Positions 17,031 to 57,165 of a stretch of DNA of 64,000 nucleotides are shown one piece after another (the stretch's first letter is position 1; each line of letters starts with the position of its first letter). The translations under genes were made by a program, and so were the position numbers. Origin of the DNA: an uncultured Gammaproteobacteria bacterium (GTDB lineage: Bacteria > Patescibacteriota > Microgenomatia > Daviesbacterales > UBA10151). The DNA is taken from positions 7,331 through 71,330 of the forward strand of contig CAZKCV010000004.1 in the NCBI GenBank assembly GCA_964551605.1. The letters run 5' to 3'. The notes under the pieces are model-generated. The model was not told the origin of the DNA and made no database searches. It worked only from the letters and a program-made list of their open reading frames with translations.

Positions 17031-17062
17031 CGTAGAATTTTTGCGGGAAATGTGCAAGAATA

Positions 17063-17130
17063 GGGGAAAGGGTGAAGGGTCAAGGGTGAAGTATTTATTT
17101 ACTTTTCCCTTTACGCTTTCCCCTTAACCC
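17063..17130. repeat. G-rich heptad repeat pair (family A): GGGGAAAGGGTGAAGGGTCAAGGGTGAAG, then a C-rich complement of the same heptad family (not an exact reverse complement)
   Basis: Four G3 tracts with 3-4-nt loops (a G-quadruplex-type motif) followed 12 nt later by the C-rich complement; lies between carB and the Fic gene. Confidence 0.5.
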
Positions 17131-17137
17131 TAACTTT

Positions 17138-31928: not shown

Positions 31929-32596
31929 GTAAAACAGTCATACATAATGAATCAGGAGAAGCTAAATTTGGGGAGCAGGATCATCTGCAGTTGGCTCGGA
32001 CAGTCAGTTTTTCTGCTTTAATTTTTGAACTGCTGTCAGAAAAATCTCCCACAAAAGAGGAGCTTAAGCTTTTTGATTTAATGCTTAATTTATCAATTGA
32101 TCACGGCCCGGATGCTCCGTCAGCAGCTGCTACCATTCAGGCAGCCAAAGAAGGTAAAGGCTTTGGTGAAGCAGTGGGAGAAGGAATTGCCCGGATAAAC
32201 GAGACTCATGGCGGGGCGATAGAACCATTGATGGAGATTTTGTATAGGCAACAGGAAACAGGCATCAGGATACAGGATTTGGTGAAGGAGTATATAGAAC
32301 AGGATAAAAAGATTCCGGGGTTAGGGCATAGATTGTATAAAGACAAAGACCCCCGGACTGAGATAATTTTTCAAACTGCCGGTAAGTTAAATATCGGGGA
32401 AGAATATATGCAAATTATCAAAGAAATCAGGGATGAATTTGAAAAACAGTCCGGAAAAAGTCTGGTGATAAATATTGACGGAGCGATAGCAGCAGTGTTG
32501 TGTGGTTTTGGCTGGCCAAGTAAATTAGGGAAAGCTGTATTCATTATTGCCCGGACTCCGGGTCTATGCGGCCACTTTCTGAACACTAAATCTTAG
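31925..32596 (+). CDS. Citrate synthase-like small protein (citryl-CoA lyase / ATP-citrate lyase C-domain-like)
   Basis: GLGHRLYKDKDPR resembles the citrate synthase GFGHRVYK His motif; 223 aa. Confidence 0.45.
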   Translation: MSKTVIHNESGEAKFGEQDHLQLARTVSFSALIFELLSEKSPTKEELKLFDLMLNLSIDHGPDAPSAAATIQAAKEGKGFGEAVGEGIARINETHGGAIEPLMEILYRQQETGIRIQDLVKEYIEQDKKIPGLGHRLYKDKDPRTEIIFQTAGKLNIGEEYMQIIKEIRDEFEKQSGKSLVINIDGAIAAVLCGFGWPSKLGKAVFIIARTPGLCGHFLNTKS

Positions 32597-34679: not shown

Positions 34680-35851
34680 GAAAAGTTCAAAGTGATTTTC
34701 CAATACTTAATAAAAAAAGCAGAAAGCTTGTTTATTTGGATTCTGCTGCAACTTCTTTAAAACCAAAACAAGTGATTAAGTCTGTGACTGATTTTTATGA
34801 GAACTACTCAGCTAATGTGCATCGGGGTATATATCAGGAATCGGAAGAAGCGACAGAAAACTATGAAGGCGTCAGGGATAAAGTGGCTAAGTTAATAAAT
34901 TCAGACAGCAGTGAGGTGATTTTTACTAAAAATGCCACTGAAGCCATTAATCTGGTGGCTAAAACATGGGAAAGCGTAAAGCGTAAAGGGGAAAGGGGAA
35001 AGAAAATTTTAACTACAGTGATGGAGCATCACAGTAATTTAATTCCCTGGCAAAAGCTATTAGGTTCAAAATTAGTTTTCTTAGATATCAATAATAACGG
35101 AGAATTAGATTTATCTGATTTGGAAAATCAGCTAAAAGGAGTTTCTTTAGTAGCAGTTGCCCATGTGTCTAATGTTTTAGGAACCATTAATCCGGTAGAA
35201 AAGATTATTAAAGCAGCTCATGAGGATGGAGCTTTAGTCTTGATTGACGGCGCCCAGGCAGCCGGACATATGAGAGTGGATATTAAAAAATTAGGCTGTG
35301 ATTTTTATGTGTTTTCCGGCCATAAAATGTTAGGTCCAAGCGGGGTAGGGGTACTATGGATGAGAAAGGAAATTGCAGAGAGTCTGCCGCCATTTTTAAC
35401 CGGCGGGGGGATGGTGGGGCAGGACACACCATATAAGTTTGAAGCAGGTACCCCCAATATAGAAGGGGTAATCGGTTTGGGAGCAGCTATAGATTATTTA
35501 CGAAATGTAGGGATGGATAAAATCAGGGAGCATGAAAAAACATTAACTGAATATGCTCTGAAGAAGTTTTCCCGGGTAAGAGGTCTGACTGTATATGGCC
35601 CTTTGGATATAAATAAACGGGGAGGAGTAATTGCTTTTAATATTGAGGGTATTCACCCTCATGATCTGGCCAGTTTACTGGATAATGACGGTATTGCCAT
35701 CCGGGCCGGGCATCATTGCGCTATGCCATTGCATGAGAGATTGGGAATCAAAGCCTCTGCCCGGATCAGCTTTTATATCTATAACAGTATTAGAGACATA
35801 GACAGGTTGGTTGTTAGCCTGCAAAAGATCAAGCGCTTACTTAAAGTATAA
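34676..35851 (+). CDS. sufS: Cysteine desulfurase SufS
   Basis: PLP-Lys motif SGHKMLGPSG and class V aminotransferase fold. Contains an in-frame family-A G-rich insert (34968-35002, encoding KRKGERGKK). Confidence 0.85.
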   Translation: MRKVQSDFPILNKKSRKLVYLDSAATSLKPKQVIKSVTDFYENYSANVHRGIYQESEEATENYEGVRDKVAKLINSDSSEVIFTKNATEAINLVAKTWESVKRKGERGKKILTTVMEHHSNLIPWQKLLGSKLVFLDINNNGELDLSDLENQLKGVSLVAVAHVSNVLGTINPVEKIIKAAHEDGALVLIDGAQAAGHMRVDIKKLGCDFYVFSGHKMLGPSGVGVLWMRKEIAESLPPFLTGGGMVGQDTPYKFEAGTPNIEGVIGLGAAIDYLRNVGMDKIREHEKTLTEYALKKFSRVRGLTVYGPLDINKRGGVIAFNIEGIHPHDLASLLDNDGIAIRAGHHCAMPLHERLGIKASARISFYIYNSIRDIDRLVVSLQKIKRLLKV

Positions 35852-37968: not shown

Positions 37969-38456
37969 AATATATTGATTTCTTTCAGGTTAGTAATCGC
38001 AAAAGGGGTCAGCTTCGATTGCATTTTCTTTAACTGGCTAATTGTAACAAATTTGACTCCGTCTGTTTCTTGTTTGTTGGGAGAAAACGGTCCATTGTAT
38101 GTAGCTTCGAAAAGGTAATTCATTTCAGTTTCAATATCTGTTTTAACAATAAATTTTTTCTTCTTAATAATAGAGAAGTTAATACCTAATTCCTCGAATA
38201 ATTCTCTTTTGGCAGTTTGTTGGTATGTTTCGCCTTTATCAACATGCCCAGCCACAGCTAAGGTATAAAGGCCTGGGTAGGTATCTTTATTCTTGCTTCT
38301 TTTTTGGAGTAATATTTCTCCTTTATCATTAAAGATAACTACTGAAATTGTTCTGTGAATGAGTTGTTTGTTGTGGTGGCAGTCAAAACGGGTGCGGTAG
38401 CCGATTATTTTATCATCTTGATCAACAACTACAAATAATTCATCTTGTTTATCCAT
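37965..38456 (-). CDS. Nudix hydrolase, type-1 IPP isomerase-like (second copy)
   Basis: HRTISVVIFNDKGEILLQKR...GHVDKGETYQQTAKRELFEELGI Nudix box; the IDI Cys position is again Ala. Confidence 0.5.
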   Translation of the reverse strand: MDKQDELFVVVDQDDKIIGYRTRFDCHHNKQLIHRTISVVIFNDKGEILLQKRSKNKDTYPGLYTLAVAGHVDKGETYQQTAKRELFEELGINFSIIKKKKFIVKTDIETEMNYLFEATYNGPFSPNKQETDGVKFVTISQLKKMQSKLTPFAITNLKEINIL

Positions 38457-39411
38457 CTATTCTGACCCCTTCTACATTAGCTTCAACATTTATGACTTGG
38501 CCTCCCGCAGAAGTAATTCCATCTTTAACAGCTTGAGTTTTATCATCTGGAGCTAGGGCTATCATGCAGTCTCCGCCGCCTGCGCCGGATAACTTTGTCC
38601 CGTATGCTCCGGCTTTTATAGCGCCTGAGATCATATCGTCAAGCTTTTGAATACTGACTCCGAGCTCTTTTAAGAGTTTTTGGTTGTCAGTCATGAGTAT
38701 TCCTAAGGCAGGCCAATCTTTGTTCAAAACAGCTGGTTTAGCCTGCTCTACTAATCTGCCAATTTCAGTATAAATTTGGTCAACAACAATTTGGTCTTTC
38801 TGTAATACCTGGTTCATTAAAGTAACAGTATCTGCTTTGACACCTGAATAACCCACGATTAAGGGGAGCGAGTCAATGTTCAAAGACTCAATTAGTTCAC
38901 CGCCTTTTTTAAAGTAAAGCGTGCCGCCGTAAACCGCGGCCGCTACATCAAAGCCGGAGCCTTTGCCCTGAATGTATAAGACAGTTTTGTAGGCAAGATC
39001 AAAAATGGCTTTGGTGTCTAGCTTGACCTCAGTTAATTCTGATAAAGCTTTAACTACACAAACAGTGGAAGCAGAGGAGGAACCAAAGCCAAATTGGGAA
39101 GAAAATTCTGAAGCGGTAGTAACATTTAATCCTCCTTGAATGGGATATTTTTCAATGAAATTTTTAACTGCAATTTCAACAAACTTGGCTCCTTTGGGAA
39201 TATCTCCTATTCCCAGCTGATCCATTGGTTTTTTGTAATCTGTAACAGCAACATCCGGGGCATTAAGAGAAAAAATAGGCTCATCAATCAGTTCTACAGT
39301 AGCTTTCATCCGTTGTCCGACAGCTGTAACAATACATGGCCGGCCGTATACCACAGCATGTTCTCCCAAAAGCATTAATTTTCCCGGCGCTGAAACAGTA
39401 ATTTTGCTCAT
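38449..39411 (-). CDS. mvk: Mevalonate kinase (GHMP kinase)
   Basis: APGKLMLLGEHAVVYG N-terminal motif and GFGSSSA ATP-binding motif; 320 aa. Confidence 0.75.
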   Translation of the reverse strand: MSKITVSAPGKLMLLGEHAVVYGRPCIVTAVGQRMKATVELIDEPIFSLNAPDVAVTDYKKPMDQLGIGDIPKGAKFVEIAVKNFIEKYPIQGGLNVTTASEFSSQFGFGSSSASTVCVVKALSELTEVKLDTKAIFDLAYKTVLYIQGKGSGFDVAAAVYGGTLYFKKGGELIESLNIDSLPLIVGYSGVKADTVTLMNQVLQKDQIVVDQIYTEIGRLVEQAKPAVLNKDWPALGILMTDNQKLLKELGVSIQKLDDMISGAIKAGAYGTKLSGAGGGDCMIALAPDDKTQAVKDGITSAGGQVINVEANVEGVRIDG

Positions 39412-40488: not shown

Positions 40489-41535
40489 TTAACATGATAT
40501 ATGAAAGCGTTGACCAATTGTAACTTGCAATAGACTTGAGTTGTCTAAGAGAGGAAAGGGATTAGTGCGGATGTCCATTTCATCAAGCAGGGAGTTAATT
40601 CTGACAGTTTGGTTATGCAAGCCTGCCTCTCTCATTCCTTGTGAATATCGGTTTACGGGTCGGTGTCCTTCCAACGGCCAGATTGCATTTGGTCCTAAGT
40701 TTGCTCTGTCCGCGATATTTTTATATGCCAGCCAAAATCTGGTAATTTGTTTTCTGGCTCTTAGTTCCTCAGGGGTGATTTTAAGATTGCCATCCGGGTT
40801 ATTTCTAGTTTGTGGGTAAGCCTCTTTCCAGTTGGCAAGGCCCTCCTCTTTTTGTTCCCAATCGAATTTTTCAAGGAATCCCAGTACCCGGATAGGATGC
40901 TCCCAAAGATCGTGATGCCAGTCTGCAAAGATGGCAAAACCTCCTATTTTTAATACCCGCGCGTAATCTTTAAAAGGGATTCTTGCATGATGGTGGATGG
41001 AGGCAACGCCTGTTAGGATATCAATGGATTGTCTTCTTAATTCTCTTAGTACTTCTGTATCTGTGCCGATTAATACTTTATAGTTGACTTTCTGCTTTTC
41101 CATAAGCTGTGCTGCTGTTTTAAGGCTTTCTTTTGATGGGTCAACAAGAATCATTGTAGCTTTTTTTCTGATATTGTCTGGAAGCGTTTCAACTATGGCC
41201 AAGGCTGATGCTCCGGCACCTGCTCCAATATCTGCTATGACAGGAGATTTCAAAAAATAATTCCTTTCTATAATTCCTGCTACAATCTTAGCTGTTGCTT
41301 GTTGCAGTAGACAGTTAGCATTGGTCAGACCTGCTTCGTTTGAAGCTTGTAGCACTAAAGCCAGTTGCTCGGGTGTTCCATTTGCCCATTCTTTTTTGTA
41401 TGCTAGAGAAGCAGGAGTTTCATTAGTATACCCACCTAAGCCGTATTTGTTGTAAGCATAATCGGGAACACGGTAGGGGGAGCCCATGGTGATAGGCATT
41501 AATGCTTCATTGTGTGGTGTTAATAGCTCTGGCAT
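40489..41535 (-). CDS. Class I SAM-dependent methyltransferase
   Basis: Motif I VIADIGAGAGASA; 348 aa. Confidence 0.6.
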   Translation of the reverse strand: MPELLTPHNEALMPITMGSPYRVPDYAYNKYGLGGYTNETPASLAYKKEWANGTPEQLALVLQASNEAGLTNANCLLQQATAKIVAGIIERNYFLKSPVIADIGAGAGASALAIVETLPDNIRKKATMILVDPSKESLKTAAQLMEKQKVNYKVLIGTDTEVLRELRRQSIDILTGVASIHHHARIPFKDYARVLKIGGFAIFADWHHDLWEHPIRVLGFLEKFDWEQKEEGLANWKEAYPQTRNNPDGNLKITPEELRARKQITRFWLAYKNIADRANLGPNAIWPLEGHRPVNRYSQGMREAGLHNQTVRINSLLDEMDIRTNPFPLLDNSSLLQVTIGQRFHISC

Positions 41536-41586
41536 ACGCTTTTGGGCACTCGGTGATTATATTACTAAAGCTTATAATGCGCAAAT

Positions 41587-42657
41587 TCAGTGTTCTTGCC
41601 TTATTCCTTCAACTCCTAAAGCTGCGTTAAAATAGGGGAGCTTGTATGACTTAGCGATTTTTTCAATTTTAGTTTTATCCTGGTGATAAGCCAGCAATAT
41701 TCCGGTGGGGCCGATCGTGGAGCCGGCACCGCACATCTTGGCGGCTCCGCCGGTTTTTTCAATCTCCCTAATGATCTGTTGGGAAAATGCTGAAACCACT
41801 CCAATGTTTTCCAAATTTCTCTCTCCCTGTTTAATTATCCTCATAAACTCCCCGCTGTCTCCGTTTTTAACCACCGGTATTAGACTCTCTGCCAGTTGGC
41901 TTTGGCTTTGAAAAGCAGTATCAAAAAGTTTTGGATTTTCCTCACGGAGTTTCCTGACTAGACTGACCATCTCGCCGGTTGACTGCTGCGGGCTGCCGGT
42001 AGCAATTAAGACAAAGTTAGCGGCGAGTTTTTCCGGAATAGTAATTTTAAGTGGGGTAATGGTTTTGGGTTCCCTGATGAATTTAATAATTCCTCCGAAG
42101 GTGACTGTGGCATTATCAGCTCCTGACGGATTGCCGTGTCTTCTTTGCTCGCCGGCATAGGCAATTTCATTGATGGTTTTTTTGTCAAATTTCTTACCCA
42201 GGAAAAGAGCGGTAGCGGCAGCGATAGCTACGCTGGTGGCGGCAGAGGAGCCTAATCCGGCGTTAACCGGCACATCTGATTTTATTTCAAGGTTGAATCC
42301 GGATGAGGGTTTTTTACCAAAAAATTTAATGGTTTCACCAATGATAATGGCTGCAAAGTCCAATGGTTGGGCAGTCAGACTTTTAATTATGGCAATGTCA
42401 TTAGTTTTGGCAAATTTCTGCCAATTTGATTCGGCTTTGGCTCTTTTGGAGAGTAATTTATCTATTGTTAATCTGGCTTTTTTATTGAAATTTTCGGAGG
42501 AAATAACAATAGTTTTATCAGATCTGGGCACTAGTTTGACGACACATCTTAAGTTGACTGCTGCCAGTAGGGCCGGAGCCCCGTAAACTACAAAATGTTC
42601 TCCGAGCAGGTGGATTTTGCCGGGAGCAGATACTTTAATACTATTATGATTCTTCAT
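41587..42657 (-). CDS. GHMP kinase, second mevalonate-kinase-like copy (possibly phosphomevalonate kinase)
   Basis: APGKIHLLGEHFVVYG and PVNAGLGSSAA motifs; 356 aa. Confidence 0.7.
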   Translation of the reverse strand: MKNHNSIKVSAPGKIHLLGEHFVVYGAPALLAAVNLRCVVKLVPRSDKTIVISSENFNKKARLTIDKLLSKRAKAESNWQKFAKTNDIAIIKSLTAQPLDFAAIIIGETIKFFGKKPSSGFNLEIKSDVPVNAGLGSSAATSVAIAAATALFLGKKFDKKTINEIAYAGEQRRHGNPSGADNATVTFGGIIKFIREPKTITPLKITIPEKLAANFVLIATGSPQQSTGEMVSLVRKLREENPKLFDTAFQSQSQLAESLIPVVKNGDSGEFMRIIKQGERNLENIGVVSAFSQQIIREIEKTGGAAKMCGAGSTIGPTGILLAYHQDKTKIEKIAKSYKLPYFNAALGVEGIRQEH

Positions 42658-42664
42658 CTTCGTT

Positions 42665-42698
42665 CACCTCGAAGGAGTCAAAGCCCACCTTCGAGGTG
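42665..42698. repeat. Family-C 34-nt perfect palindromic element cacctcgaagg-agtcaaagccca-ccttcgaggtg (intergenic copy)
   Basis: Exact reverse complement of the copy at 46241-46274, which lies inside the HMG-CoA reductase CDS. Confidence 0.6.
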
Positions 42699-42701
42699 TT
42701 G

Positions 42702-43001
42702 CTAAATAGGTTTTGCTTTGATACCGTACTCAATTACTTCATCTAATTTAACTTTGCCTAATTTCCTGACTACAGTAATAATTTTCTGATTAGGCTTCAG
42801 ATGTTTTTCGGCGTATTCCACCAGTTGCAGAGGCATTCTCATGCCGTCTTTAAACTGCACAATAGCCACCGGGTAAGGGGCTTCATGCTCAAATCCGGCC
42901 GGAGCAATATAGACTTTAGTCCATACAATAATTTTACCTGTTTGTCCCAGGTAGTTTTTAATATTTTTATGATGTCTCCAAACTGTAACAGGACTACTCA
43001 T
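42702..43001 (-). CDS. DUF35-like OB-fold protein (partner of archaeal-type thiolase/HMG-CoA synthase)
   Basis: 99 aa. Gene order DUF35-thiolase-HMGCS is typical of the archaeal-type complex. Confidence 0.5.
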   Translation of the reverse strand: MSSPVTVWRHHKNIKNYLGQTGKIIVWTKVYIAPAGFEHEAPYPVAIVQFKDGMRMPLQLVEYAEKHLKPNQKIITVVRKLGKVKLDEVIEYGIKAKPI

Positions 43002-43018
43002 AGGTCGGTTTCGCCTCC

Positions 43019-43053
43019 AATGTAAAATGTAAAATGTAAAATTTAAAATTTAA
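43019..43053. repeat. Heptamer tandem repeat (AATGTAA)x3 (AATTTAA)x2
   Basis: Direct 7-nt periodicity in the intergenic region, followed by a family-B-like palindrome agcttgcgatctaaagatcttaa. Confidence 0.4.
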
Positions 43054-43105
43054 TTGTAAGCTGAGCTTGCGATCTAAAGATCTTAAATTGTACATTTGTA
43101 AATTG

Positions 43106-44257
43106 TTAATTTTGTAGTATGTGTACTACAACCGTGGCTCCGGTGCCTCCCACATTTTGGGTCAGGCCGATATTTGCATCTTTCACCTGTCGGCTGCCGG
43201 CATTTTTGCGCAGCTGTTCCGTAATTTCAATGATCTGTTTAACTCCGGTGGCGCCGACCGGATGCCCGCAGGCTTTCAAGCCGCCGGAGGTATTAACAGG
43301 AAGTTTTCCCCCTAATCTGGTATGGCCTTTGGTGATAAACTTGCCTCCTTCTCCTTCGGGACAAAAACCTAAATCTTCCATGGCCATAATTTCGGCTATA
43401 GTAAAGCAGTCATGAACCTCAGAGACTTTAATGTCTTTGATCTCTGCTCCGGCTTGTTTTAAAGCAAGCTTAGCTGCCAGCTGGGTAGCTTTTAATTCTG
43501 TTAAGCTGGATCTCTGCGCTAAGTCAATGGTATCCGAAGCCACAGCGCTGCCGGTAATATACACCTGCCTGCCGGCAGGCAGGCCCCTTGACGAGTCATC
43601 CCCGGAAAGTATAACTGCAGCGGCACCATCAGTAATAGGGGAGGAATCAAAAAGTGTAATCGGGTAAGAAATTAAACTACTGCTTAAAACTTTTTCGGCT
43701 GTTATCTCATACGGATAGTGGGCCTTTTTATTCAAAGAAGCATGGTAGTGATTTTTTACTGAGACATGGGCCAGATGTTCCCGGGTGGTGCCGTATTTTT
43801 GCATATGGGCCTGGGCCATTAATGCATACAGGGCGGGGAAAGTTAAGCCGGCTTTTCGCTCTTTAGAAGAGCTGGCCCCCATTAAAGCCCAGGTGATTTG
43901 ACTTGATGGGGCATCAGTCATTTTTTCCGCTCCCACTACCAGGACATTTTTATATGTCCCGGCTAAAATGCCCTGGATGGCTAAATGGACGGCCAGTCCT
44001 CCTGAGGCACAGGCACCTTCAATCCTAAAGGAGGCGCAGTTAAGTCCTAAAGAAGAGCTGATGACCGGTCCCAGGTGATCCTGACCGGCAATTTTACCAA
44101 TTAACATATTGCCGACAAAAACGGCATCGATTGTATTTTTATCAATTCCTGAATCTTTGATAGCATCAAGAGATGCTTCTAGCCCCAAATCAAGTAATGA
44201 TTTGTCCCAGAGTTCACCGAATTTTGTTAAACCTACTCCAGCTACCTTAATACGCAT
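43106..44257 (-). CDS. Acetyl-CoA C-acetyltransferase (archaeal-type thiolase)
   Basis: Thiolase fold with the catalytic Cys region ..GACASGG.. and a C-terminal GH/CG active site GGLKACGHPVGATG. Confidence 0.85.
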   Translation of the reverse strand: MRIKVAGVGLTKFGELWDKSLLDLGLEASLDAIKDSGIDKNTIDAVFVGNMLIGKIAGQDHLGPVISSSLGLNCASFRIEGACASGGLAVHLAIQGILAGTYKNVLVVGAEKMTDAPSSQITWALMGASSSKERKAGLTFPALYALMAQAHMQKYGTTREHLAHVSVKNHYHASLNKKAHYPYEITAEKVLSSSLISYPITLFDSSPITDGAAAVILSGDDSSRGLPAGRQVYITGSAVASDTIDLAQRSSLTELKATQLAAKLALKQAGAEIKDIKVSEVHDCFTIAEIMAMEDLGFCPEGEGGKFITKGHTRLGGKLPVNTSGGLKACGHPVGATGVKQIIEITEQLRKNAGSRQVKDANIGLTQNVGGTGATVVVHILQN

Positions 44258-44262
44258 AAATT

Positions 44263-45303
44263 TTATATCCTGTACTTATTTATTATGTTCCTGGCTACCA
44301 GTGAATAATCAATCATTTGTTTATTTTGTATTTGATTTTGGACATTTTTGCTGTTTTTCTTTTGGAATTGTTTTAACAGGGGAGTGGTTTCAAAGATAAA
44401 GGAATCAGAGCCGGCACCTGAGCCATAGGAGCACATAAAGATCTTTTGCTTAGGGTTAGCAATATCCAAAGTAGCTGCCAAGCCTATCATGGATGAGGCA
44501 GAATAAGGATTACCTATTTGAGAAACTATAAATCCGGGTTTTAATTGCTCATCTTTAAAGCCTAACCTTTTGGCTGCTTCTTTGGGGAACTTACCATTTG
44601 GCATATGGAAAACAGCAAACTTAAAGTCAGCCGGTTTTAGTTTCGCTTTTTCCAGTAACAGGTTGGAAGCACTAAGAACATGATTAAAGTAAGCCGGATC
44701 TCCGGTGAACCTGCCGCCGTGGGAGGGAAATTTTTCAGTATCCCTTCTCCAAAAGTCCGGAGTATCCGAACTGTAGGAAGTAAAATCTAAGATATTAGCA
44801 AGTGTATCCTTGTTGCCTAATATGAAACTGGCAGCAGCAGAGCCTGCAGTATATTCCAAAACATCAGATGGCTTGGATTGGGCTACATCAGAACCGATGG
44901 CTAAAACATATTTGGTATCTTTGCCAACTAAGCCTGATAATAGCTGCATTCCGGAGGTGCCGGCTTTGCAGGCAAATTCCAAGTCCACAGCCAGTAAATT
45001 CTCCGGCAGGCCTAAAATTCCGGCTACAGTGGTGGCAGTAGGTTTAACTGCATAAGGATGGGATTCTGAGCCTACTGTTATGGCGCCTATTTTACTGAGG
45101 TCAAAGTTAAGTGGCATAGCAGCATTAAGGGTAGCCTCAACTGCTAAAGTGACTGCATCTTCATCAACTGAGGCCACAGCTTTTTCAAAAACCCCTAAAG
45201 CTTTTTCTACTTCATTGACTTCCTTGCCCCAGGCATGAGCGATTTGAGAGGGCTTGATGCGGTATTTTGGAATATAAGTTCCGTATGAAACAATGCCTGT
45301 CAT
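44263..45303 (-). CDS. mvaS: Hydroxymethylglutaryl-CoA synthase
   Basis: N-terminus GIVSYGTYIPKYRI and catalytic Cys region EFACKAGTS; 346 aa. Confidence 0.85.
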   Translation of the reverse strand: MTGIVSYGTYIPKYRIKPSQIAHAWGKEVNEVEKALGVFEKAVASVDEDAVTLAVEATLNAAMPLNFDLSKIGAITVGSESHPYAVKPTATTVAGILGLPENLLAVDLEFACKAGTSGMQLLSGLVGKDTKYVLAIGSDVAQSKPSDVLEYTAGSAAASFILGNKDTLANILDFTSYSSDTPDFWRRDTEKFPSHGGRFTGDPAYFNHVLSASNLLLEKAKLKPADFKFAVFHMPNGKFPKEAAKRLGFKDEQLKPGFIVSQIGNPYSASSMIGLAATLDIANPKQKIFMCSYGSGAGSDSFIFETTPLLKQFQKKNSKNVQNQIQNKQMIDYSLVARNIINKYRI

Positions 45304-46469
45304 TTTTTTCTTCCAAGTTTTTGATGTGCTTTTGCCAAACTGCCTTCTGCTAAGCTGGCAATCAAAGATAGTTCACCGGCCAAGACCGTTGCGCCTAAAA
45401 CTTGAGCATATTCTAACACACCCTTCACATTCATAACCTTCAGAGCTTCCTGCTGGGTAGGAAGGTGTGTCCCGCCGCCGACAGTGCCAACTATTAAAGA
45501 GGGGAGATAGACAGAAAAATAAAGGCTATTGTTTTCCAATACCTCGGCGCTGGTTATTCCTAAACTGGCTTCTGTTACATGTGCTAAATCCTGACCGGTG
45601 GCAGCAAAAACCGCTGCCGCAATATTGGCAAAGTGGCTGTTATAGCCAAGGGAGCCTGACATTATTGAGCCCAGATGGCATTTCCGTTCAGTTACTTCGA
45701 CAACTTTCTCCGGGGTAGTTTTGAGGACATTGGTTACTACCTTTTTAGGTAATATGCATTCTGCCCAGACTTTTTTGCCGCGGCCTAAAATGAAATTTAG
45801 CCAGGAAGGTTTTTTATCTATATCAAAGTTACCTGCTAAAGAAATGCATTTGGCGGAGGTCTTTTCTTCAATGATTTTTACCATTGCTTCAGTGGCAATA
45901 GTGGCCATATTCATTCCCATGGCATCGCCGGTATCAAAATAGAACCTGACAAATAGGTTTCTGCCGACGATTCTATAATCTGCCTTTAATAATTTTAGAT
46001 GGGAAGAAGTGGCTTCAGCCGCCTTGGCCAAAGCTTTGAAGTTTTTTTCAATCCAGATTTTGGTTTTCATGGCTCTGCTTAAGTCTTTAAGTTTAAAAAC
46101 CGGCCCCCGGGTAATACCGACATTCTCTATAAAAACCATTATTCCACCGGATTCCTTGGTGGCTTTGCAGCCCCGGGAAACAGAAGCTACCAGAGCGCCT
46201 TCTGTTGTTGCTAACGGAATAAAATAATTTTTCTCTCTTACACCTCGAAGGTGGGCTTTGACTCCTTCGAGGTGGACTAATAATGGCCCGGCAATACCAA
46301 GGGGGATTTGGGCAGCGCCGATTAAATTTTCAATATTTCGGCCAACTGCAGCCTCTTCCGGAAAGCTGAAATCGCCAATATTATCCAGTTTAATATTTAG
46401 CTTTTTTTCTAGAAACTGCCGCCTTTTTTGTGCAGATGTAAAGCCACGAAGTGAGGTTTGATCTTTCAT
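45300..46469 (-). CDS. mvaA: HMG-CoA reductase
   Basis: ATTEGALVAS, the GTVGGGT region and DAMGMN motifs. Contains the family-C 34-nt palindrome in frame (VKAHLRGV). Confidence 0.85.
   Translation of the reverse strand: MKDQTSLRGFTSAQKRRQFLEKKLNIKLDNIGDFSFPEEAAVGRNIENLIGAAQIPLGIAGPLLVHLEGVKAHLRGVREKNYFIPLATTEGALVASVSRGCKATKESGGIMVFIENVGITRGPVFKLKDLSRAMKTKIWIEKNFKALAKAAEATSSHLKLLKADYRIVGRNLFVRFYFDTGDAMGMNMATIATEAMVKIIEEKTSAKCISLAGNFDIDKKPSWLNFILGRGKKVWAECILPKKVVTNVLKTTPEKVVEVTERKCHLGSIMSGSLGYNSHFANIAAAVFAATGQDLAHVTEASLGITSAEVLENNSLYFSVYLPSLIVGTVGGGTHLPTQQEALKVMNVKGVLEYAQVLGATVLAGELSLIASLAEGSLAKAHQKLGRKK
46241..46274. repeat. Family-C 34-nt palindromic element inside the HMG-CoA reductase CDS
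   Basis: cacctcgaaggtgggctttgactccttcgaggtg, reverse complement of 42665-42698; 11-bp arms with a 12-nt loop. Confidence 0.6.
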
Positions 46470-46619
46470 TGGTAGTCAATTCTACCAGAAACGACATTGG
46501 TAACCAAGTTGCTATTCGGCAGCACCTATGATAGATTTCTCCTATGGCTGAAAGAAGTTTTTCTGAGCATACTCTAATGGAGTATCGTAATCAAGGGCTT
46601 CATGAGGGCTGTAGGAGAA

Positions 46620-47174
46620 TTAAAATCTGGTTAAGGTAATTTTCTTTTGACCTAGAGGTGGATAAAAATTAAGTGATTCAAGTTTTAAAGTTTTACCGGT
46701 TAGCTTCTCCTGAAAATATTTTAAAATTTCGGTTGGATATCTATTATCCTGATTTTTAATGTAGCATAAAGCTAAATGAGGATCAAAAGGCAAAGATTCA
46801 GAAACAATCTCATTATTTTGTCTGACCCAGGAGTCAAACAAGAGAATATTCTGATCTATCTCCGGAATGGCAACAACAATATAATATTCCCCCTTGTATC
46901 CTAAATTGATTTGTATATTTTTAATTTTAATATTTTGTTGCCAGTTTAATTTTAACTTTGCAGCTTTAAATCTTTTTTCCAGGTCCAGATTTTTAATTCC
47001 GTAACAAATTGTCAAATGGCCTTTCAGGCTAACATTTCCATTAATATAAGTGTAGCCAGGATCGAATGATTGAAAATAATCTTTTCCCGGAATCTTCTGG
47101 GAGATGATGTCAAAAAGCATCTGCCTACTGGTACCGGAAAGGTCAATAACAACATAACCTAAATCATTACTCAT
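46620..47174 (-). CDS. 2H phosphoesterase family protein (LigT/ThpR-like)
   Basis: Two H-x-T/S-x motifs (GHLTI and PHLAL) at typical spacing; 184 aa. Confidence 0.5.
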   Translation of the reverse strand: MSNDLGYVVIDLSGTSRQMLFDIISQKIPGKDYFQSFDPGYTYINGNVSLKGHLTICYGIKNLDLEKRFKAAKLKLNWQQNIKIKNIQINLGYKGEYYIVVAIPEIDQNILLFDSWVRQNNEIVSESLPFDPHLALCYIKNQDNRYPTEILKYFQEKLTGKTLKLESLNFYPPLGQKKITLTRF

Positions 47175-47196
47175 ATATATAAGGATACTAGCATAA

Positions 47197-47814
47197 TTGC
47201 TTTGTATCTGGGTACCTATCAGAAAATTATATTCAGTGGGATTGACAACTGTACAAGGTTTTATTCCTTTTCACCCTTTGATGGACGAAGCGGAGTTAAG
47301 TGAAAATTTGAAATTTATCGAAAGACATCCCGAAGATATTACCCCTTCTCTTGATAATCCTTTAGGATTCTTAAGAGTTAACCCACGTACCGCGTATCTT
47401 GGTCATGTTTTAAAACAGCAAGAAGAGCGACATGTCCGTTTGATTAAAGAGTTCGATCCAAATACTCTAAGTTATCACTGTGGTTATCTTGATCCAAAGT
47501 TAGGTCTTCTAGCAAGTTTTTTATATTCGCTTAAGGCTCTTACACGATCGGAAATAAAACACATTCAATGGGATGACGACATAAACAGTCGACTTATTCG
47601 TATGAGATATATTAATTTTGATTTGCTTAGCTCCTCTTATCGGTATTTTACTGAATCAACATCTACTCATTCACTAGAAATACAACTTGTAACAGACCTT
47701 CTTCCTTGGTATCACAAAACTGTTGCTAAGGTTGGATTAGACGGAGTTGGAGAAGATTTTGAAGATCGCTTCGCTCATGAATTCGAGAGAAATAAATCAA
47801 TCCTCCTTGTTTAA
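47197..47814 (+). CDS. Hypothetical protein
   Basis: 205-aa ORF with no motif recognised. Confidence 0.25.
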   Translation: MLCIWVPIRKLYSVGLTTVQGFIPFHPLMDEAELSENLKFIERHPEDITPSLDNPLGFLRVNPRTAYLGHVLKQQEERHVRLIKEFDPNTLSYHCGYLDPKLGLLASFLYSLKALTRSEIKHIQWDDDINSRLIRMRYINFDLLSSSYRYFTESTSTHSLEIQLVTDLLPWYHKTVAKVGLDGVGEDFEDRFAHEFERNKSILLV

Positions 47815-47858
47815 CAACCTAATGTGCAAGAACTGGGATTATATGGTAAATTTAGGCA

Positions 47859-48806
47859 ATGGAATTTGAGGAATTTAGAAAAAGCGTCACTTTGCAGATT
47901 GAAAAGCAGTTAAAGAAGCTACTGAGAGACTGGAGGAGCGAGGTGGAAAAAATTGACACTAAGCTTTTGCCACTGGTAGATAAATTTATCGCCGGTTGTC
48001 AGGGAGGGAAGATGATCAGAGGTATATTGGTGGTGCTGGGGAATGAGATTGCGAGGGGTGGAGATCACCTCGGAGGAGTCATGGCTTCGCAAGCTCAGCC
48101 TGCCACCATCCGAGGAGATCTTGATAGGGAGATTTTTAAAGTTGCAGCGACTTATGAAATAATGCACAGCGCGATTTTGGCTCATGATGATATCATAGAC
48201 CAAAGCCCGGAAAGGCGGGGCCAGTCTTCTTTATTTAAAGCTATTGGCCAGGGTCATTATGGAATATCCCAGGCGATCAGTTTAGGGGACGCCGGTTTTT
48301 TCCTGGCAATGAAGATTATTTCTGGAGCTAATTTTCCCAAAGAAAGAAAAATTCCCGCCCTGAAACTGCTTTCTACAGTAATGTTGGATACAGCTTTGGG
48401 GGAAATATTGGATTTAGAGAAAGTTGATCCGTTGGTTGTGACAAAGCTTAAAACGGCGTACTATACGATCTCCGGGCCGCTGCAGTTGGGAGCAATTTTA
48501 GGGGGGGCCGAATCTCACCTCGGAGGAGTCAAAGCCCACCTAATACGTGCTCAAAGAGAGCAACGAGGTGTAAAACTACTTAACAATTTGGCAAAATTTG
48601 GAGAGGGCTTAGGGATTGCTTTTCAGATCCAGGATGATATTTTGGATTCTGAAGTAGATTTTTGGGGAGGGGCTGATAAGGCTAAAAAGGAAGCGGATAA
48701 GTTTAAAAATAAAGCATTGAAGATATTGCCGGAGATTACCAAAGATCCCCAAATGAGTAAATTGTTGGAACAGTTATCGAAATACTTAATCGAAAGAACA
48801 GAATGA
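47859..48806 (+). CDS. Polyprenyl diphosphate synthase (trans-isoprenyl diphosphate synthase)
   Basis: DDxxD motifs (AHDDIID and QIQDDILD). Carries two degenerate family-C-derived in-frame inserts (48066-48125 and 48514-48567). Confidence 0.8.
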   Translation: MEFEEFRKSVTLQIEKQLKKLLRDWRSEVEKIDTKLLPLVDKFIAGCQGGKMIRGILVVLGNEIARGGDHLGGVMASQAQPATIRGDLDREIFKVAATYEIMHSAILAHDDIIDQSPERRGQSSLFKAIGQGHYGISQAISLGDAGFFLAMKIISGANFPKERKIPALKLLSTVMLDTALGEILDLEKVDPLVVTKLKTAYYTISGPLQLGAILGGAESHLGGVKAHLIRAQREQRGVKLLNNLAKFGEGLGIAFQIQDDILDSEVDFWGGADKAKKEADKFKNKALKILPEITKDPQMSKLLEQLSKYLIERTE

Positions 48807-49492
48807 AAAATATTCCACAACATATTGCCATAATTATGGACGGAAACCGCCGTTGGGCCCGGTCAAAGGGTCTGCCGGATATTAGGGGCCACGAGAAGGG
48901 CACGGATATTCTGGAAGAGGTGGTGGAAGCTGCAGAGGGTTTAGGAGTAAAAGCCATCACAGTTTATGCTTTGTCTACAGAAAACATTAAAGAGCGGGCT
49001 AAAAGGGAGGTCTTGGGGCTGTTTAACCTGATCAGGAGGGGTTATCATATAAAGCTTAAGAAGATGATGCAAAGAGGGGTACGGATCAGTATTTTAGGGG
49101 AAATGCAGGGCCTGCCGGGAACCATAAAAAGACTGATTGAGCAGGTGAAAAAAACCTATATCAAAAATGAATCCATCAAGCTCAATATAGCCTTAAATTA
49201 TGGCGGGAAAAGAGAGCTGGTAGAGGCTGTAAAAGATCTGATTAAAGAAGGAATTGATGTAAGTAAATTAAATGAGAAAACAATAGAAAAATATCTTTAT
49301 ACTAATGGCCAGCCTGATCCGGAGCTGGTGATCAGAACCGGCGGCAGGTCCAGGTTATCTAACTTCCTGCTTTGGCAAACAGCTTATTCGGAATTTTATT
49401 TTACTAAAACATTATGGCCGGATTTTGATAAAAAGGAATTTAAAAAAGCTTTAGCCTGGTACCAGGAGCAGAAAAGAAATTTTGGTAAGTAG
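48803..49492 (+). CDS. uppS: Undecaprenyl diphosphate synthase (cis-prenyltransferase)
   Basis: HIAIIMDGNRRWA, E..YALSTEN and RTGG..RLS motifs; 229 aa. Confidence 0.85.
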   Translation: MKNIPQHIAIIMDGNRRWARSKGLPDIRGHEKGTDILEEVVEAAEGLGVKAITVYALSTENIKERAKREVLGLFNLIRRGYHIKLKKMMQRGVRISILGEMQGLPGTIKRLIEQVKKTYIKNESIKLNIALNYGGKRELVEAVKDLIKEGIDVSKLNEKTIEKYLYTNGQPDPELVIRTGGRSRLSNFLLWQTAYSEFYFTKTLWPDFDKKEFKKALAWYQEQKRNFGK

Positions 49493-49493
49493 C

Positions 49494-50294
49494 TTACTGA
49501 ACCTCTGACCAACGTTGAAGGGTATCGGCAAATAAATCCCTTAAAATCACCACATATTTCGGCTGGTGGACTATCTTTTCCGCAGCCACTGTATTATCAG
49601 TCAGGCTGCGGCAGAAAACTATTTTACCCGGGCTTAGACTGATTAAACTGCCATAAATAGTTAAAGTGTTGGCTACAGTGGAATTAGTAGTACAAGGATA
49701 ACCGGCAGTATAAATTTTATCTGAAGAAATGATCACCGAATATATTTGAGTCACAGTTTGAGTGATACTAACGTAGCCCTTAACGACAAAGACTATGCCG
49801 GAGCTTGCGTCTCCGAAATTACTGTTAAAGGTTAAATCTCCGTCTACAAAGATAACAGCAGCGGTTTTGGAGGGCCCACCTAGAGGGGAATTAATATCTA
49901 CATTTCCATTAACTAATACAATGTCATAACTGTTTAATAGGGACCTTAAAGTGCCTTGGTTGGCGGTGGCAGTTGATGTTTTAGCGGCTTTAGATTGGGT
50001 GTAATAGAGTGATTTTAGATCTTCATAAGTAGGGATTTTATAGGAGACAAAAGCAGCTTTTAAGTCAATCACGCAATTACCGGTGGTATTGCTGAATTTA
50101 GTAGAAACTGTCGGAGCACTAATTAAGCCGCCGGCCCGGGGATTGGTGGATTGGGTTGGGCAGGCATTTTGGGCATAAACGGTTGGTAGTATAAATAAAG
50201 CTACGACAATCAAATAAGCTGCCAAAATAACTGTACCCTGTAACCTAAGACCTTTAGGTCGCAAGCTTCGCTTATACCCTGTACCCTTTATCAT
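49494..50294 (-). CDS. Secreted/membrane-anchored hypothetical protein
   Basis: N-terminal hydrophobic segment after the family-B-encoded KRSLRPKGLRL; Thr/Ser/Asn-rich body. Confidence 0.4.
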   Translation of the reverse strand: MIKGTGYKRSLRPKGLRLQGTVILAAYLIVVALFILPTVYAQNACPTQSTNPRAGGLISAPTVSTKFSNTTGNCVIDLKAAFVSYKIPTYEDLKSLYYTQSKAAKTSTATANQGTLRSLLNSYDIVLVNGNVDINSPLGGPSKTAAVIFVDGDLTFNSNFGDASSGIVFVVKGYVSITQTVTQIYSVIISSDKIYTAGYPCTTNSTVANTLTIYGSLISLSPGKIVFCRSLTDNTVAAEKIVHQPKYVVILRDLFADTLQRWSEVQ

Positions 50295-51898
50295 TATGGT
50301 CCTCCCGGAGCCTGGATAGCTTTATTGGAGTGGACATCACCGCCCTCTGTTTGTACCCAAGGGGTGATGCAGGCCCTGAGGTTACAAGTTTGGGTTTCTC
50401 TCAAACCCCTGGTGCCGTCTGCTTTCAGGCACTGCAGCCCGCCGTAGGCCGGAACCGGACTAATGCAATTTCTGGTTTTGAAGCCAGGCCCGCAGGTTTC
50501 AGTACACATAGAATTCCAAACCGGCCCGTCCGGAAAGTCCCAGCCGCCATCAACAGGGCAACGCGGAATGTTACAAGTCACAGTCTGGGAAGAAGGGCCG
50601 GAACAGGGGGCGCCGTTGTTTGAAGGCGGAGTGCAGGTTCTGGTCCTGGTGGTTGTATCGGAACCGTCCCCGCAGGCCGGACAGGCACTCCAGGGGCTCC
50701 AGGCAGACCAGACACCATCCGTAGGACACAGCGGGAGTTTGATAATAGATACTGCGCTATGCCAGCCAAAATTGCCGTTAAACCAGTATGTGCTCCAGTT
50801 GGAGGAAGCATCATAGCCGAATAAACGGACGTAATAAGTATGGTCGGGTTGAATAGTCAGGGGGCCGGAAACTCCTGAGGCGCCATTAAAGCCGATAGGG
50901 GCATCCGTGTAAGTAGCGCCCGCAGGAACTCCTTTATTATAAAAAGTGGCAAAGTTAGGGTCTTCGCTGATATCCACCCAGTTGATTTGGCGTGCCGGAT
51001 TGGAGGTGGGGAAATAGATCCTGGCCAGGACAGAATTAGTGGCATTTGAAGTTAAGCAGGTGCCATAGTTAGTCAGAGTGTAATCATACTGGATATTCGG
51101 CGCCGGCATTTGGTATCTAAACCCGGAGGCGCAGGTATTGGCAAGCTCTGTTTCTACACTTTGGTTGTTCCAGTTAGTAGTCCTTTGTATAAGGCTATAT
51201 TTAGTGCCAATGGTATAGTAAGGGTTATTAAAGGCAATACTTTGGCTTGAGTATCCAGTTGACCAATTCCGGGTACATAATCCTGAGGATCCCCATCGGG
51301 TATCACAGACTGTCCAGTCCCAGTTGTTCCAGTTATCATGAGCCTTGACATAGAAGTTAGTTACTGTCCAGGGATAAACCCAATCATAAAGATTGATTGT
51401 GCAACGGTTATCCCACCAGTTCATCCAGCAGTACCCGCTGCTGGACCAGATATAGGCTTTATTCCAAGTGTAAGCGCCGCATTGGGGAGGGGCCGGAGGA
51501 GGCTGCGGAGGGTTATTCAGGGTAATATTAATGGAGGAACAACTACCGGTGTTGCCGGCGGCATTAGGCGAGACAATAGTGGCGGTTATATGATGAGGAG
51601 GAGTACCGGTAGATTGTCCGGTTGTATTCCAAGTTACACTGGGCTTGATAGCAGGTACAGTGTCCCCCGGGGCGGGCCAAATCCTGGTATTATCAACTAA
51701 AATAGCGGTTACTCCTTGAGTATTAGTGGTATCCACCGTAATAATAATTGATTCACCGATAGTGGCACTTGTTTTGGCAGTGATATTACAGGTGGGGGTA
51801 CTAAAGTCAGTATTCCAGTCAGCCAGGGCCGGGGAGATAAAGTATAGAGTATAAAGTATAAAGTATAGTGGGAAATAAAGCAGCAGGCGGCAGGGCAT
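50294..51898 (-). CDS. Secreted Trp/Cys-rich protein with two thrombospondin type-1-like repeats
   Basis: Signal-peptide-like N-terminus; WSAWSPWSACPACGDGSDTTTRTRTC and a second CxxTCGPG..R.C repeat; GC-rich relative to its surroundings. Confidence 0.5.
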   Translation of the reverse strand: MPCRLLLYFPLYFILYTLYFISPALADWNTDFSTPTCNITAKTSATIGESIIITVDTTNTQGVTAILVDNTRIWPAPGDTVPAIKPSVTWNTTGQSTGTPPHHITATIVSPNAAGNTGSCSSINITLNNPPQPPPAPPQCGAYTWNKAYIWSSSGYCWMNWWDNRCTINLYDWVYPWTVTNFYVKAHDNWNNWDWTVCDTRWGSSGLCTRNWSTGYSSQSIAFNNPYYTIGTKYSLIQRTTNWNNQSVETELANTCASGFRYQMPAPNIQYDYTLTNYGTCLTSNATNSVLARIYFPTSNPARQINWVDISEDPNFATFYNKGVPAGATYTDAPIGFNGASGVSGPLTIQPDHTYYVRLFGYDASSNWSTYWFNGNFGWHSAVSIIKLPLCPTDGVWSAWSPWSACPACGDGSDTTTRTRTCTPPSNNGAPCSGPSSQTVTCNIPRCPVDGGWDFPDGPVWNSMCTETCGPGFKTRNCISPVPAYGGLQCLKADGTRGLRETQTCNLRACITPWVQTEGGDVHSNKAIQAPGGP

Positions 51899-57000: not shown

Positions 57001-57165
57001 ATGGTCAAGTTGAATGCAAAGCAATTAAGGAAGGGTAAAGGGGAAAGCGTAAAGGGTGAAGTAAGAAAGAACAACATCTATATTATCCTGGATAATGTTT
57101 TAGATACCTATAATATTGGTTCTATCTTCAGGCTGGCAGATGCAACTTTGAAGATTTTACATTGA
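57001..57165 (+). pseudogene. Duplicated 5' fragment of the TrmH-family methyltransferase gene (48 codons + 6 novel codons)
   Basis: 57001-57143 matches 59764-59906. A 53-bp core is identical; a 42-nt G-rich heptad block differs. Confidence 0.5.

Follow-up and report, generated by a model that had tools for sequence, protein, structure and literature searches.

The 64,000-nucleotide window analyzed here, from contig CAZKCV010000004.1 of an uncultured bacterium, contains a 34-nt hairpin, hereafter family C, that occurs once between genes, once in frame within the gene for HMG-CoA reductase (HMGR) and, in variant form, twice within a polyprenyl synthetase gene. This 34-mer is probably one family in a superfamily of ultra-small, non-autonomous palindromic repeats of Candidatus Daviesbacteria and related Microgenomates (candidate phyla radiation [CPR]/Patescibacteria), selfish or neutral in nature and tolerated in permissive protein loops. 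At its individual sites, a function is less likely than a selfish or neutral presence. The whole unit, with any secondary insert in its loop, is copied to new places, where the copies acquire nested inserts, deletions, point decay, and in-place loop flips. To judge from the reading frames, hairpins within genes are presumably translated and not excised. A sequence-only reading of the window had already interpreted the 34-mer as a mobile hairpin that tolerates translation, and the present data support that interpretation in its essentials.

The element (CACCTCGAAGGAGTCAAAGCCCACCTTCGAGGTG) occupies positions 42665-42698 of the forward strand, and direct matching confirmed that positions 46241-46274 are its exact reverse complement. 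No match with up to three mismatches arose in 100 dinucleotide-preserving shuffles. Initially described as a perfect palindrome, the 34-mer is instead a stem-loop, in which two perfectly complementary 11-nt arms (CACCTCGAAGG and CCTTCGAGGTG) form an 11-bp stem around an asymmetric, non-palindromic 12-nt loop (AGTCAAAGCCCA). The predicted fold is stable in RNA (-18 kcal/mol) and in DNA (-11.3 kcal/mol), the z-score being about -5.5 for both. Across 58 distinct copies, 99.8% of the stem cells are paired, and double-sided changes affect 4 of the 11 stem pairs. The stem variants CGAAGG…CCTTCG (A-T) and CGGAGG…CCTCCG (G-C) are always compensated; the compensatory changes comprise A-T to G-C (16 times) as well as C-G to G-C, G-C to C-G, and A-T to G-C at three other pairs. 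These pairing and covariation values were not attained in any of 500 shuffles. The single-sided changes (four G·U versus one A·C) are too few to tell RNA from DNA.

Upstream of the hairpin, a pyrimidine is found at position -2 in 30 and at position -1 in 28 of 31 distinct sites (p=3e-7 and 3e-5, respectively), and the commonest dinucleotides over the ~31 sites are TC (14), CT (8), and TT (5). The hairpin and this 5' YY make up a 36-nt unit, i.e., 12 codons, which explains how the insertions keep the reading frame. Three comparisons agree with this length: at the second polyprenyl synthetase site, the cleanest filled/empty case, the filled locus L157 (other genome pieces are referred to by L numbers) exceeds the empty loci L033 and L158 by exactly 36 nt; the window HMGR is 12 residues longer than human HMGR at its insert; and the 20-residue loop of the window HMGR equals the 8-residue loop type of its orthologues plus 12. 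The stem begins with CACC and ends with GGTG, with no conserved tag on the 3' side. Comparison of 2-4 nt on either side of 35 copies disclosed no target-site duplication, only the one-sided YY. A scan of positions 41000-49500 against Rfam 15 returned no known RNA family at E<=1 except an unrelated weak CyVA-1 match elsewhere.

The 34-mer is not confined to its two sites in the window; this and the lack of the extra residues in most orthologues are the two counts on which the refuting condition set in the sequence-only reading fails. A scan with a 23-nt core, using one genome per species, recovered 33 further copies on 32 stretches from 22 other assemblies, mostly labelled Daviesbacteria and one Gottesmanbacteria, which brings the total to 35 with the two copies of the window. 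In all exact-core copies, similarity is confined precisely to the 34-mer, and the sequences on either side bear no relation to one another. Each assembly holds one to six exact copies, all of them solitary single units; even the nearest neighbors, which lie inside genes, are separated by more than 1.4 kb, unlike CRISPR-like or tandem arrays. A metagenome scan for the two arms separated by a free loop of 6-36 nt yielded at least 120 loci. Among the matches listed, the same stem carries many loop families, including the 12-nt AGTCAAAGCCCA and its point variants, the 13-nt AGTCCTTCGGCCA, the 14-nt AGTCCATTCGGCCA, the 22-nt AGTCGAGGTCGCTGCCTCGCCA, 27-nt and 32-nt composites, and others. Full-text literature searches found no description of elements of this type in CPR/Patescibacteria. 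Carriage by phages was considered and set aside; the whole superfamily pattern is near-absent from viral contigs, with a single match in IMG/VR. The window HMGR is 100% identical to an NCBI protein, and its relatives there are named Candidatus Daviesbacteria, which assigns the window to a genome of that group (CPR/Microgenomates). Several metagenome-assembled genomes (MAGs) with copies are titled 'uncultured Gammaproteobacteria' or 'Flavobacteriales' (L003, L004, L010, L014, L016, L017, L022, L023, L025, L026, L029, and L002), in contrast to their Daviesbacteria-like genes. In nr, proteins on these contigs are named Daviesbacteria, and the titles are probably placeholder or mis-binned taxonomy.

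Most copies reside within genes. Twenty-nine of the 35 exact-core copies (~83%) lie in long continuous open reading frames (ORFs), in either orientation, and the other six stand directly upstream of either a start codon or a gene for tRNA; given a coding density of ~94%, the elements thus neither avoid nor prefer genes. Five of the six reading frames of the hairpin are open, and the genic copies use the frames HLEGVKAHLRG (10 copies), TSKESKPTFEV (9), TSKVGFDSFEV (9), and PRRWALTPSR (1). The remaining open frame, PRRSQSPPSR, and the frame containing TGA are not used by any genic copy. The chance of the TGA frame never being used is ~0.005 if copies are counted and ~0.05 if the ~17 independent genic sites are. 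Nineteen of the 29 genic copies are sense and 10 antisense to the host gene, where the open frames predict 3:2, but this orientation is uninformative because loops flip in place. The hosts are unrelated housekeeping or surface proteins with no common functional theme, e.g., Asp-tRNA synthetase (AspRS), topoisomerase I, PurL, MurB, CCA-adding enzyme, thiolase, GHMP kinase, an ATP-grasp protein, a 3D-domain protein, a prepilin leader, and giant surface proteins; these names were read by eye from the translated ORFs, with Pfam or database confirmation only for AspRS and the mevalonate-cluster proteins. In the two hosts examined closely, surviving copies sit in variable loops, namely, the tip of a β-hairpin in HMGR and an N-terminal loop in AspRS. 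The apparent prepilin leader (L012 at 5623 and L083 at 3338) reads MKRKFQIRL-HLEGVKAHLRG-GLSFTLVELLVV, a segment that would be cleaved off. A 2310-residue repeat-rich surface protein with intein/Hint-like segments in L008 (JACPKL010000008) contains two copies in opposite orientation (2132 and 6554-6587), and the corresponding site of a paralogue from that genome (L032) is occupied as well.

The copy in the window (hairpin at 46241-46274, preceded on the reverse strand by TC at 46275-46276; unit 46241-46276, -) lies in the class I HMGR gene at 45300-46469 (-; PF00368; E=5e-99 to PDB 6HR7). As the sequence-only reading had it, the hairpin adds residues in frame upstream of the ATTEG motif: the encoded stretch, HLEGVKAHLRGV (residues 66-77), precedes IPLATTEG by ten residues, and alignment to human HMGR shows a gap of exactly 12 residues there. 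In an AlphaFold model built from 86 aligned orthologues (mean pLDDT, 80; pTM, 0.79), these residues form the tip of a β-hairpin with strands at 57-67 and 79-87, at a local confidence of ~60-80. This position, together with the gaps in solved HMGRs, leads us to infer a surface-type loop. In a survey of 120 orthologues, the stretch between GPL and IPLATTE measures 4, 8, or, most commonly, 13 residues. Family C or recognizable derivatives of it, including HLEGAKAHLRGV, HLEGVKTHLRGV, RPGGVKAHLRGV, and RLKGAKARLTG, occur in only 12 of them, and quite different inserts fill the same loop in others. The extra residues are therefore not a conserved trait of the orthologues; the four nearest relatives of the window HMGR (76-88% identity) are without the element. 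The closest of these, L033 (88%), has a different 21-nt insert in its HMGR, and in the HMGR of L158, a composite whose canonical loop is extended by 15 nt shares its junctions with the window copy. Element-bearing sequences are scattered over the neighbor-joining tree, which is star-like and poorly resolved, so that a single origin is compatible with the tree alone. The common 13-residue loop types (KLRTTNYELRTHY, RVKSxESRVKEYY, KIINHKSLIINHF, and others) are internally repetitive and likewise scattered over the gene tree, as if they were exchangeable modules too; in L024, (GAGTCAA)x4 encodes this loop (~4200-4260), and the family-C loop contains GAGTCAA as well.

The polyprenyl synthetase gene (47859-48806, +) encodes 315 aa versus 271-277 aa in its insert-free orthologues, and it bears two structured copies, both in frame. 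These had been taken for decayed remnants of family C; two copies are indeed present, but neither is decayed. The first (48066-48117, +) is a 52-nt composite (CACCTCGGAGG-AGTCATGGCTTCGCAAGCTCAGCCTGCCA-CCATCCGAGGAG) that encodes HLGGVMASQAQPATIRG and consists of a family-C stem, perfect except for a mismatch and a bulged A, that holds a family-B-like core nested in its loop. This nesting, also noted earlier, is borne out by 13/13 nt (TCGCAAGCTCAGC) shared with the reverse complement of the family-B copy at 43057-43088. The AspRS gene of GCA_964489875.1 (L155) contains an insert that matches the composite at 51/52 nt, and the composite's peptide HLGGVMASQAQPATIRGD also appears in the AspRS proteins P0126 and P0138. 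The composite is therefore a conserved composite sub-family and not a randomly decayed copy. The second copy (48516-48570, +), which encodes HLGGVKAHL-IRAQREQ-RGV, is an intact G-C variant of family C with a nested insertion in the right arm: the left arm, loop, and CCT (48516-48541) are followed by 22 nested nt (AATACGTGCTCAAAGAGAGCAA; 48542-48563; net, +21 nt or IRAQREQ) and by CGAGGTG, the rest of the right arm (48564-48570). At the first site, L033 and L158 are empty and L157 carries a different sub-family; at the second, L033 and L158 are again empty and L157 (JAQUSJ01) has an uninterrupted copy. The 271-residue enzyme of L033 is without both inserts. Alignment of orthologues, suggested earlier as a check, thus confirmed the inserts and their absence from the closest HMGR and polyprenyl synthetase orthologues. 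The other composite, the canonical loop plus 15 nt of the L158 HMGR, also recurs at three unrelated metagenomic loci. Nothing argues more strongly for copying of the entire hairpin as one unit than such recurrence of composites in unrelated contexts.

Presence and absence also vary in the opposite direction: at four sites where other genomes carry the element, the window has none. One lies in the GHMP-kinase gene (38449-39411; site at 39100-39180, -; filled in L028 and L143) and another in the thiolase gene (43106-44257; site at 43460-43500, -; filled in L006). The other two are at 30290-30460 (+) within ORF 29882-31051, which resembles ATP-grasp or succinyl-CoA-synthetase-β proteins by eye only; one of these is filled in L013, L022, L100, and L104 and the other in L025. 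Net lengths between filled and empty alleles are 33, 36, and 57 nt (window versus L028, L006, L013/L022/L025, L033, and L156), with loop surroundings too diverged for exact junctions.

Occupied loops recur across species. With up to three mismatches, 61 copies fall into ~31 distinct sites, of which 16 are common to two or more contigs, including the AspRS gene of the Gottesmanbacteria MAG. At these shared sites the flanks differ by 30.4%, whereas the element differs by 2.4% with the covarying pair set aside, and by 1.3% at the ten positions outside the search pattern. This disparity is not expected of a single old insertion drifting neutrally. Repeated occupation or re-templating of the same loops is indicated instead by orthologous AspRS copies read in different phases, by paired variant swaps, by loop flips, by the many families found in one loop, and by the different sub-families of the window and L157 at the first polyprenyl synthetase site. 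AspRS illustrates such a hot loop. Among 120 orthologues, most have a loop of ~8 residues, and ~25 have inserts from many hairpin families: family C in two phases, the 52-nt composite, a swapped-arm family, a CACCCC…GGGGTG family, and a deletion derivative (P0132). The hot loops may reflect the scarcity of places that tolerate 12 extra residues, a target preference, or conversion between copies. Other, unrelated small palindromic inserts were seen beside or in family-C loops, namely, a 42-nt block after the AspRS copy of L021 (after 6017), CCTTCGACTCCCTCCGGTCGCTCAGGGCAA in L022 (~1750-1800), and one in L025 (~4560-4640).

The near-invariance of the element at shared sites could also mean that it is a functional nucleotide-level signal held at conserved positions by purifying selection or molecular drive, such as a sequence bound by a DNA- or RNA-binding protein, an mRNA hairpin with a regulatory role (an RNase target or one masking an internal Shine-Dalgarno-like GGAGG/GAGGTG), or a DNA-uptake/recognition sequence. 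The divergence values, the 16 sites common to contigs of different species, the covariation of the stem, and the intergenic copies, whose 3' arm contains GAGGTG and which lie 7-13 nt upstream of start codons, would all fit such a signal. We nonetheless consider it unlikely, as presence is patchy even among the closest relatives, the same loops hold unrelated hairpin families in other lineages, and copies decay, suffer deletions, and take up nested insertions without loss of the host gene. Furthermore, the hosts share no functional theme, orthologous copies differ in phase, and the few copies per genome fall far under known uptake sequences (USS/DUS), which have a short non-palindromic core and ~1 copy per kb, as against two exact and two variant copies, and no others, in the 64-kb window.

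Several observations at orthologous sites point to exchange between copies. A-T/G-C pair swaps separate orthologous copies with flanks 82-95% identical (L009/L030 and L017/L026). At three orthologous sites (topoisomerase I, the 3D-domain protein, and a tRNA-upstream copy), the 12-nt loop is reverse-complemented with arms and junctions unchanged. Sub-family variants are common to different sites (AGCCAAAGCTCA in L125 and L129/L134; AGTCAGGGCCCA in L093 and L115), and the HMGR copies of the window and L158 share both junctions and differ by the 15-nt loop block found at three unrelated loci. All this would follow if a few ancient insertions were re-templated through their 11-nt arms by conversion or template switching, with no new transposition. 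As a complete account, this concerted evolution is quite improbable: it leaves unexplained the first arrivals at ~31 unrelated sites, the empty alleles in close relatives, and the different phases of orthologous AspRS copies (L003 and L011 versus L004, L018, and L021). A-T and G-C variants also coexist in one genome (L013, L015, JAUSHE01), and 11-nt arms are short for recombination. Concerted evolution is better seen as a component of the small-mobile-hairpin explanation than as an alternative to it.

Removal of the hairpin from the RNA as a mini-intron, or its skipping by ribosomal bypass, would keep it from ever reaching the protein. The hairpin is stable, and CPR genomes are known for insertions in rRNA genes. 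However, net inserts are multiples of three (36, +15, and +21 nt), the stop-containing frame is avoided, decayed and deleted derivatives are still in frame, and excision of 34 nt would shift the frame, all of which makes either process very improbable. An old conserved protein loop with coincidental nucleotide identity, or an assembly or sequencing artefact, has nothing more than the open ORFs in its favor and is hardly credible at all, being refuted by the shuffles (chance expectation, 0), by the genome scan of independent assemblies from many studies and sample types, by the same nucleotides being read in four frames in unrelated proteins, and by the presence of the element in only 12 of 120 HMGR orthologues.

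How might selfish or neutral hairpins of this size spread? In a ~94% coding genome, most insertions would land in genes, selection would keep those in permissive loops, and each surviving copy would be translated as a 12-residue extension. Propagation might proceed via folding of the hairpin in single-stranded DNA. By analogy with RAYT or the TnpA of IS200/IS605, a trans-acting, hairpin-recognizing enzyme of the HUH/Y1 type could cut beside the 5' YY; alternatively, copies could spread by template switching during replication or by conversion between copies. Template switching would also account for arm co-correction, loop flips, nested loop insertions, and homogeneity. Complementarity of the arms and homogeneity among copies would be maintained by this same propagation process.

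Certain results weigh against the view of the 34-mer as a member of a mobile, selfish or neutral superfamily. Over half of the sites are common to different species, the element being ~98% and the flanks ~70% identical, and these shared near-invariant sites make purely random transposition insufficient, so that strong hot-spot behavior, copy-to-copy conversion, or nucleotide-level selection is needed. Copy number is low, as given above. No mobilizing enzyme or autonomous parent was found in ~1 Mb of loci (8-kb genome pieces), where arm pairs 60-6000 nt apart enclosed no gene, no RAYT-type gene was seen bracketed by arms, and only solo arms and swapped-arm hairpins were present. No filled/empty pair is close enough to fix a junction to the nucleotide, no insertion polymorphism was directly observed within a single population, and the exact-match searches are biased toward undecayed copies. 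As for the recent mobility claimed in the sequence-only reading, it draws support from patchiness and near-identity, but we infer it only indirectly, and many sites are shared between species.

Among known systems, the nearest analogue in behavior is provided by the Rickettsia palindromic elements (RPEs), and the nearest in form by REP/REPIN sequences. According to the summary in PMC10969869 of the work of Ogata et al. (2000/2002), RPEs lie in frame in housekeeping genes, are translated, and are presumably tolerated because of their position at the protein surface. Like the Daviesbacteria hairpin, they are dispersed palindromic repeats that lack a transposase gene and reside largely in unrelated housekeeping genes of reduced genomes where intergenic DNA is scarce. 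However, RPEs are ~100-150 bp (three to four times longer), with a conserved peptide in one frame, whereas the 34- to 36-nt hairpin uses four frames and both orientations. The hosts (Rickettsiales versus CPR) and the sequences are unrelated, and the shared stems with exchangeable loops, nested insertions, and loop flips belong to the Daviesbacteria hairpin. A CGTC tag reported for RPEs (PMC3733652) is absent from it. REP/REPIN sequences are 20- to 40-nt stem-loops with stems of 5-13 bp, loops of 2-20 nt, and compensatory sub-families; occasional intragenic copies occupy the same site in related species, and mobilization as single-stranded hairpins by a RAYT, an HUH/Y1 enzyme cutting beside the hairpin, has been proposed (PMC3733652, PMC3116915). 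The Daviesbacteria element matches them in size class and in compensatory stem sub-families (34 nt, 11-bp stem, 4 covarying pairs). In contrast to REPs, which carry an unpaired GTAG/CGTC tag, are mostly extragenic, and reach tens to thousands of copies with inverted doublets, it has a 5' YY (TC, CT, or TT) before a stem that starts from CACC, is 83% intragenic, and occurs as one to six exact copies, all singles.

Other comparisons are more distant. Elements derived from IS200/IS605 have two different sub-terminal hairpins and insert 3' of a fixed 4- to 5-nt target without duplication; the hairpin described here is single and symmetric, and its 5' YY preference without duplication would be loosely compatible with such insertion, at a length of only 2 nt. 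CRISPR and other repeat-spacer systems are arrays with unique spacers, unlike solitary hairpin copies. The small dispersed repeats (SDRs) of Nostoc and other cyanobacteria, a class credited to Elhai et al. in 2008, are said to be shorter than 40 nt, nearly invariant, nested, arguably mobile, and in part hairpin-forming. SDRs share with the Daviesbacteria element a very small size, nesting, and a genome rich in tandem heptamers (at least 10 arrays in the window) but belong to another phylum and have other sequences. We know of no systematic in-frame residence in conserved enzymes or shared-stem/variable-loop design in SDRs. The GC clusters of yeast and the double-hairpin elements of Allomyces are likewise short hairpins, rich in GC, that spread in compact genomes, sometimes into coding regions, and chloroplast hairpin-loop inversion is a flip-flop of the loop with fixed arms. 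Sponge mitochondria also contain repetitive hairpin-forming elements, short hairpins in a compact genome (PMC2800124). The spread in compact genomes and the chloroplast-style loop flip at three hairpin sites are common ground; the organelle genomes, sequences, and sizes differ, and mobility is inferential there as well. MITEs (miniature transposable elements with inverted repeats), including the intragenic Coxiella QMITE (PMC5896051), are similarly non-autonomous, with terminal inverted repeats and possible in-frame fusions, but they measure 50-500 bp and have target-site duplications and a parent insertion sequence with matching ends, three features none of which was found here.

Tiny palindromic repeats tolerated in coding sequence are thus already known in kind (RPE, REP, or SDR-like); what sets the present element apart is its unit of 36 nt or 12 codons, the combination of one common stem with loops that can be exchanged, and the recurrent near-invariant occupation of the same enzyme loops across species. 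If our explanation is true, CPR bacteria with their ~94% coding genomes would host a population of hairpin micro-repeats within genes and not between them. The repeats would steadily supply 12-residue and larger nested loop insertions to essential enzymes (HMGR, AspRS, topoisomerase I, PurL, and MurB) and provide a concrete mechanism for many unexplained short insertions in CPR proteins. They would also pose an annotation hazard through mis-alignment and odd 'conserved' peptides such as HLEGVKAHLRG and TSKESKPTFEV, and offer a tractable natural system for how REP-type single-hairpin repeats move, a question still unsettled. A bolder reading, which we hold to be rather unlikely, is that these hairpins are a class of mobile DNA not described before and the smallest known, spreading and homogenizing through the hairpin itself (by template switching or conversion between copies, insertion into loops, and loop flip-flop) by way of host replication/repair alone or a CPR enzyme and repeatedly remodelling the same surface loops of essential enzymes across Microgenomates, or else that they are nucleotide-level functional signals within coding sequence.

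The copies of the window cluster in a mevalonate-pathway region (41587-49492), in a stretch with a coding density of ~94% on a crude gene map. Besides HMGR and polyprenyl synthetase, this region comprises genes for mevalonate kinase (41587-42657, -), an OB-fold/DUF35-type protein (42702-43001, -), thiolase (43106-44257, -), HMG-CoA synthase (44263-45303, -), and an undecaprenyl-diphosphate-synthase-like protein (48803-49492, +; from its L033 orthologue, PF01255). The intergenic copy (42663-42698, +; hairpin at 42665-42698 preceded by TT, a full 36-nt unit) occupies the 44-nt spacer between the OB-fold/DUF35-type and mevalonate kinase genes, 3 nt past the stop codon of the former and 7 nt ahead of the ATG of the latter, and an orthologous copy sits in the same spacer of L024 (JACOXH01). 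On the mRNA strand (42655-42704, -), the 3' arm ends in GAGGTG, the sole Shine-Dalgarno-like motif before the mevalonate kinase ATG; the hairpin-to-ATG spacing is 13 nt in L024 and L009/L030. The hairpin may incidentally carry and mask this ribosome-binding site, coupling mevalonate kinase translation to the upstream ORF. A role of this copy as terminator or promoter is not supported: it has no T tail, a terminator scan did not call it, and most copies lie inside ORFs.

Between HMGR and polyprenyl synthetase, the window alone has a 1.4-kb segment (46470-47858) with a GC content of 0.37; the two genes are adjacent in L033, L157, and L158. The segment's ORFs 46620-47174 (-) and 47197-47814 (+) were rejected as candidate mobilizing genes, as neither has a Pfam match and nothing ties either to the element. 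Elsewhere, a 534-residue protein (50294-51898, -) matches thrombospondin type 1 (TSP_1, PF00090; E=4e-9), which is unusual in a bacterium. A different hairpin with a 13-bp stem, CACCCCCGGGGTG-taatcgcattttttc-CACCCCGGGGGTG, is located at 62684-62724 inside ORF 62388-63560 (-). Its loop matches a metagenomic family with a family-C stem (…GGtgtaatcgcatttcttcaCC…, L058), and related GVKLIHPPGVQ inserts are present in AspRS orthologues. The family-B core, TAAGCKRAGCTTGCGATCT-nnn-GATCTTA, which is the block nested in the 48066 composite, occurs at 43019-43116 and also at 24988-25020 and 50246-50275, as well as in L024 (4584), L028, and L115. It is flanked by AATGTAA x5 on one side and TAAATTG-type repeats on the other, and in L028 these arrays are GAGTCAA.

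At least 10 tandem heptamer arrays of four to five units are found in the window, about half of them inside ORFs and some paired with an inverted array to form long hairpins. They are located at 13129-13161, 17062-17139, 25067-25167, 32246-32277, 34966-35015, 43019-43053, 43084-43116, 51837-51867, 57024-57064, 59795-59826, and 60038-60079, with units that include AACAGGC, AAGGGTG, AGGAAAC, GGGAAAG, AATGTAA, TAAATTG, ATAAAGT, AAGGGTA, AGGGTAC, and AAGCGTA, among others. These arrays recall the STRR heptamers of cyanobacteria.

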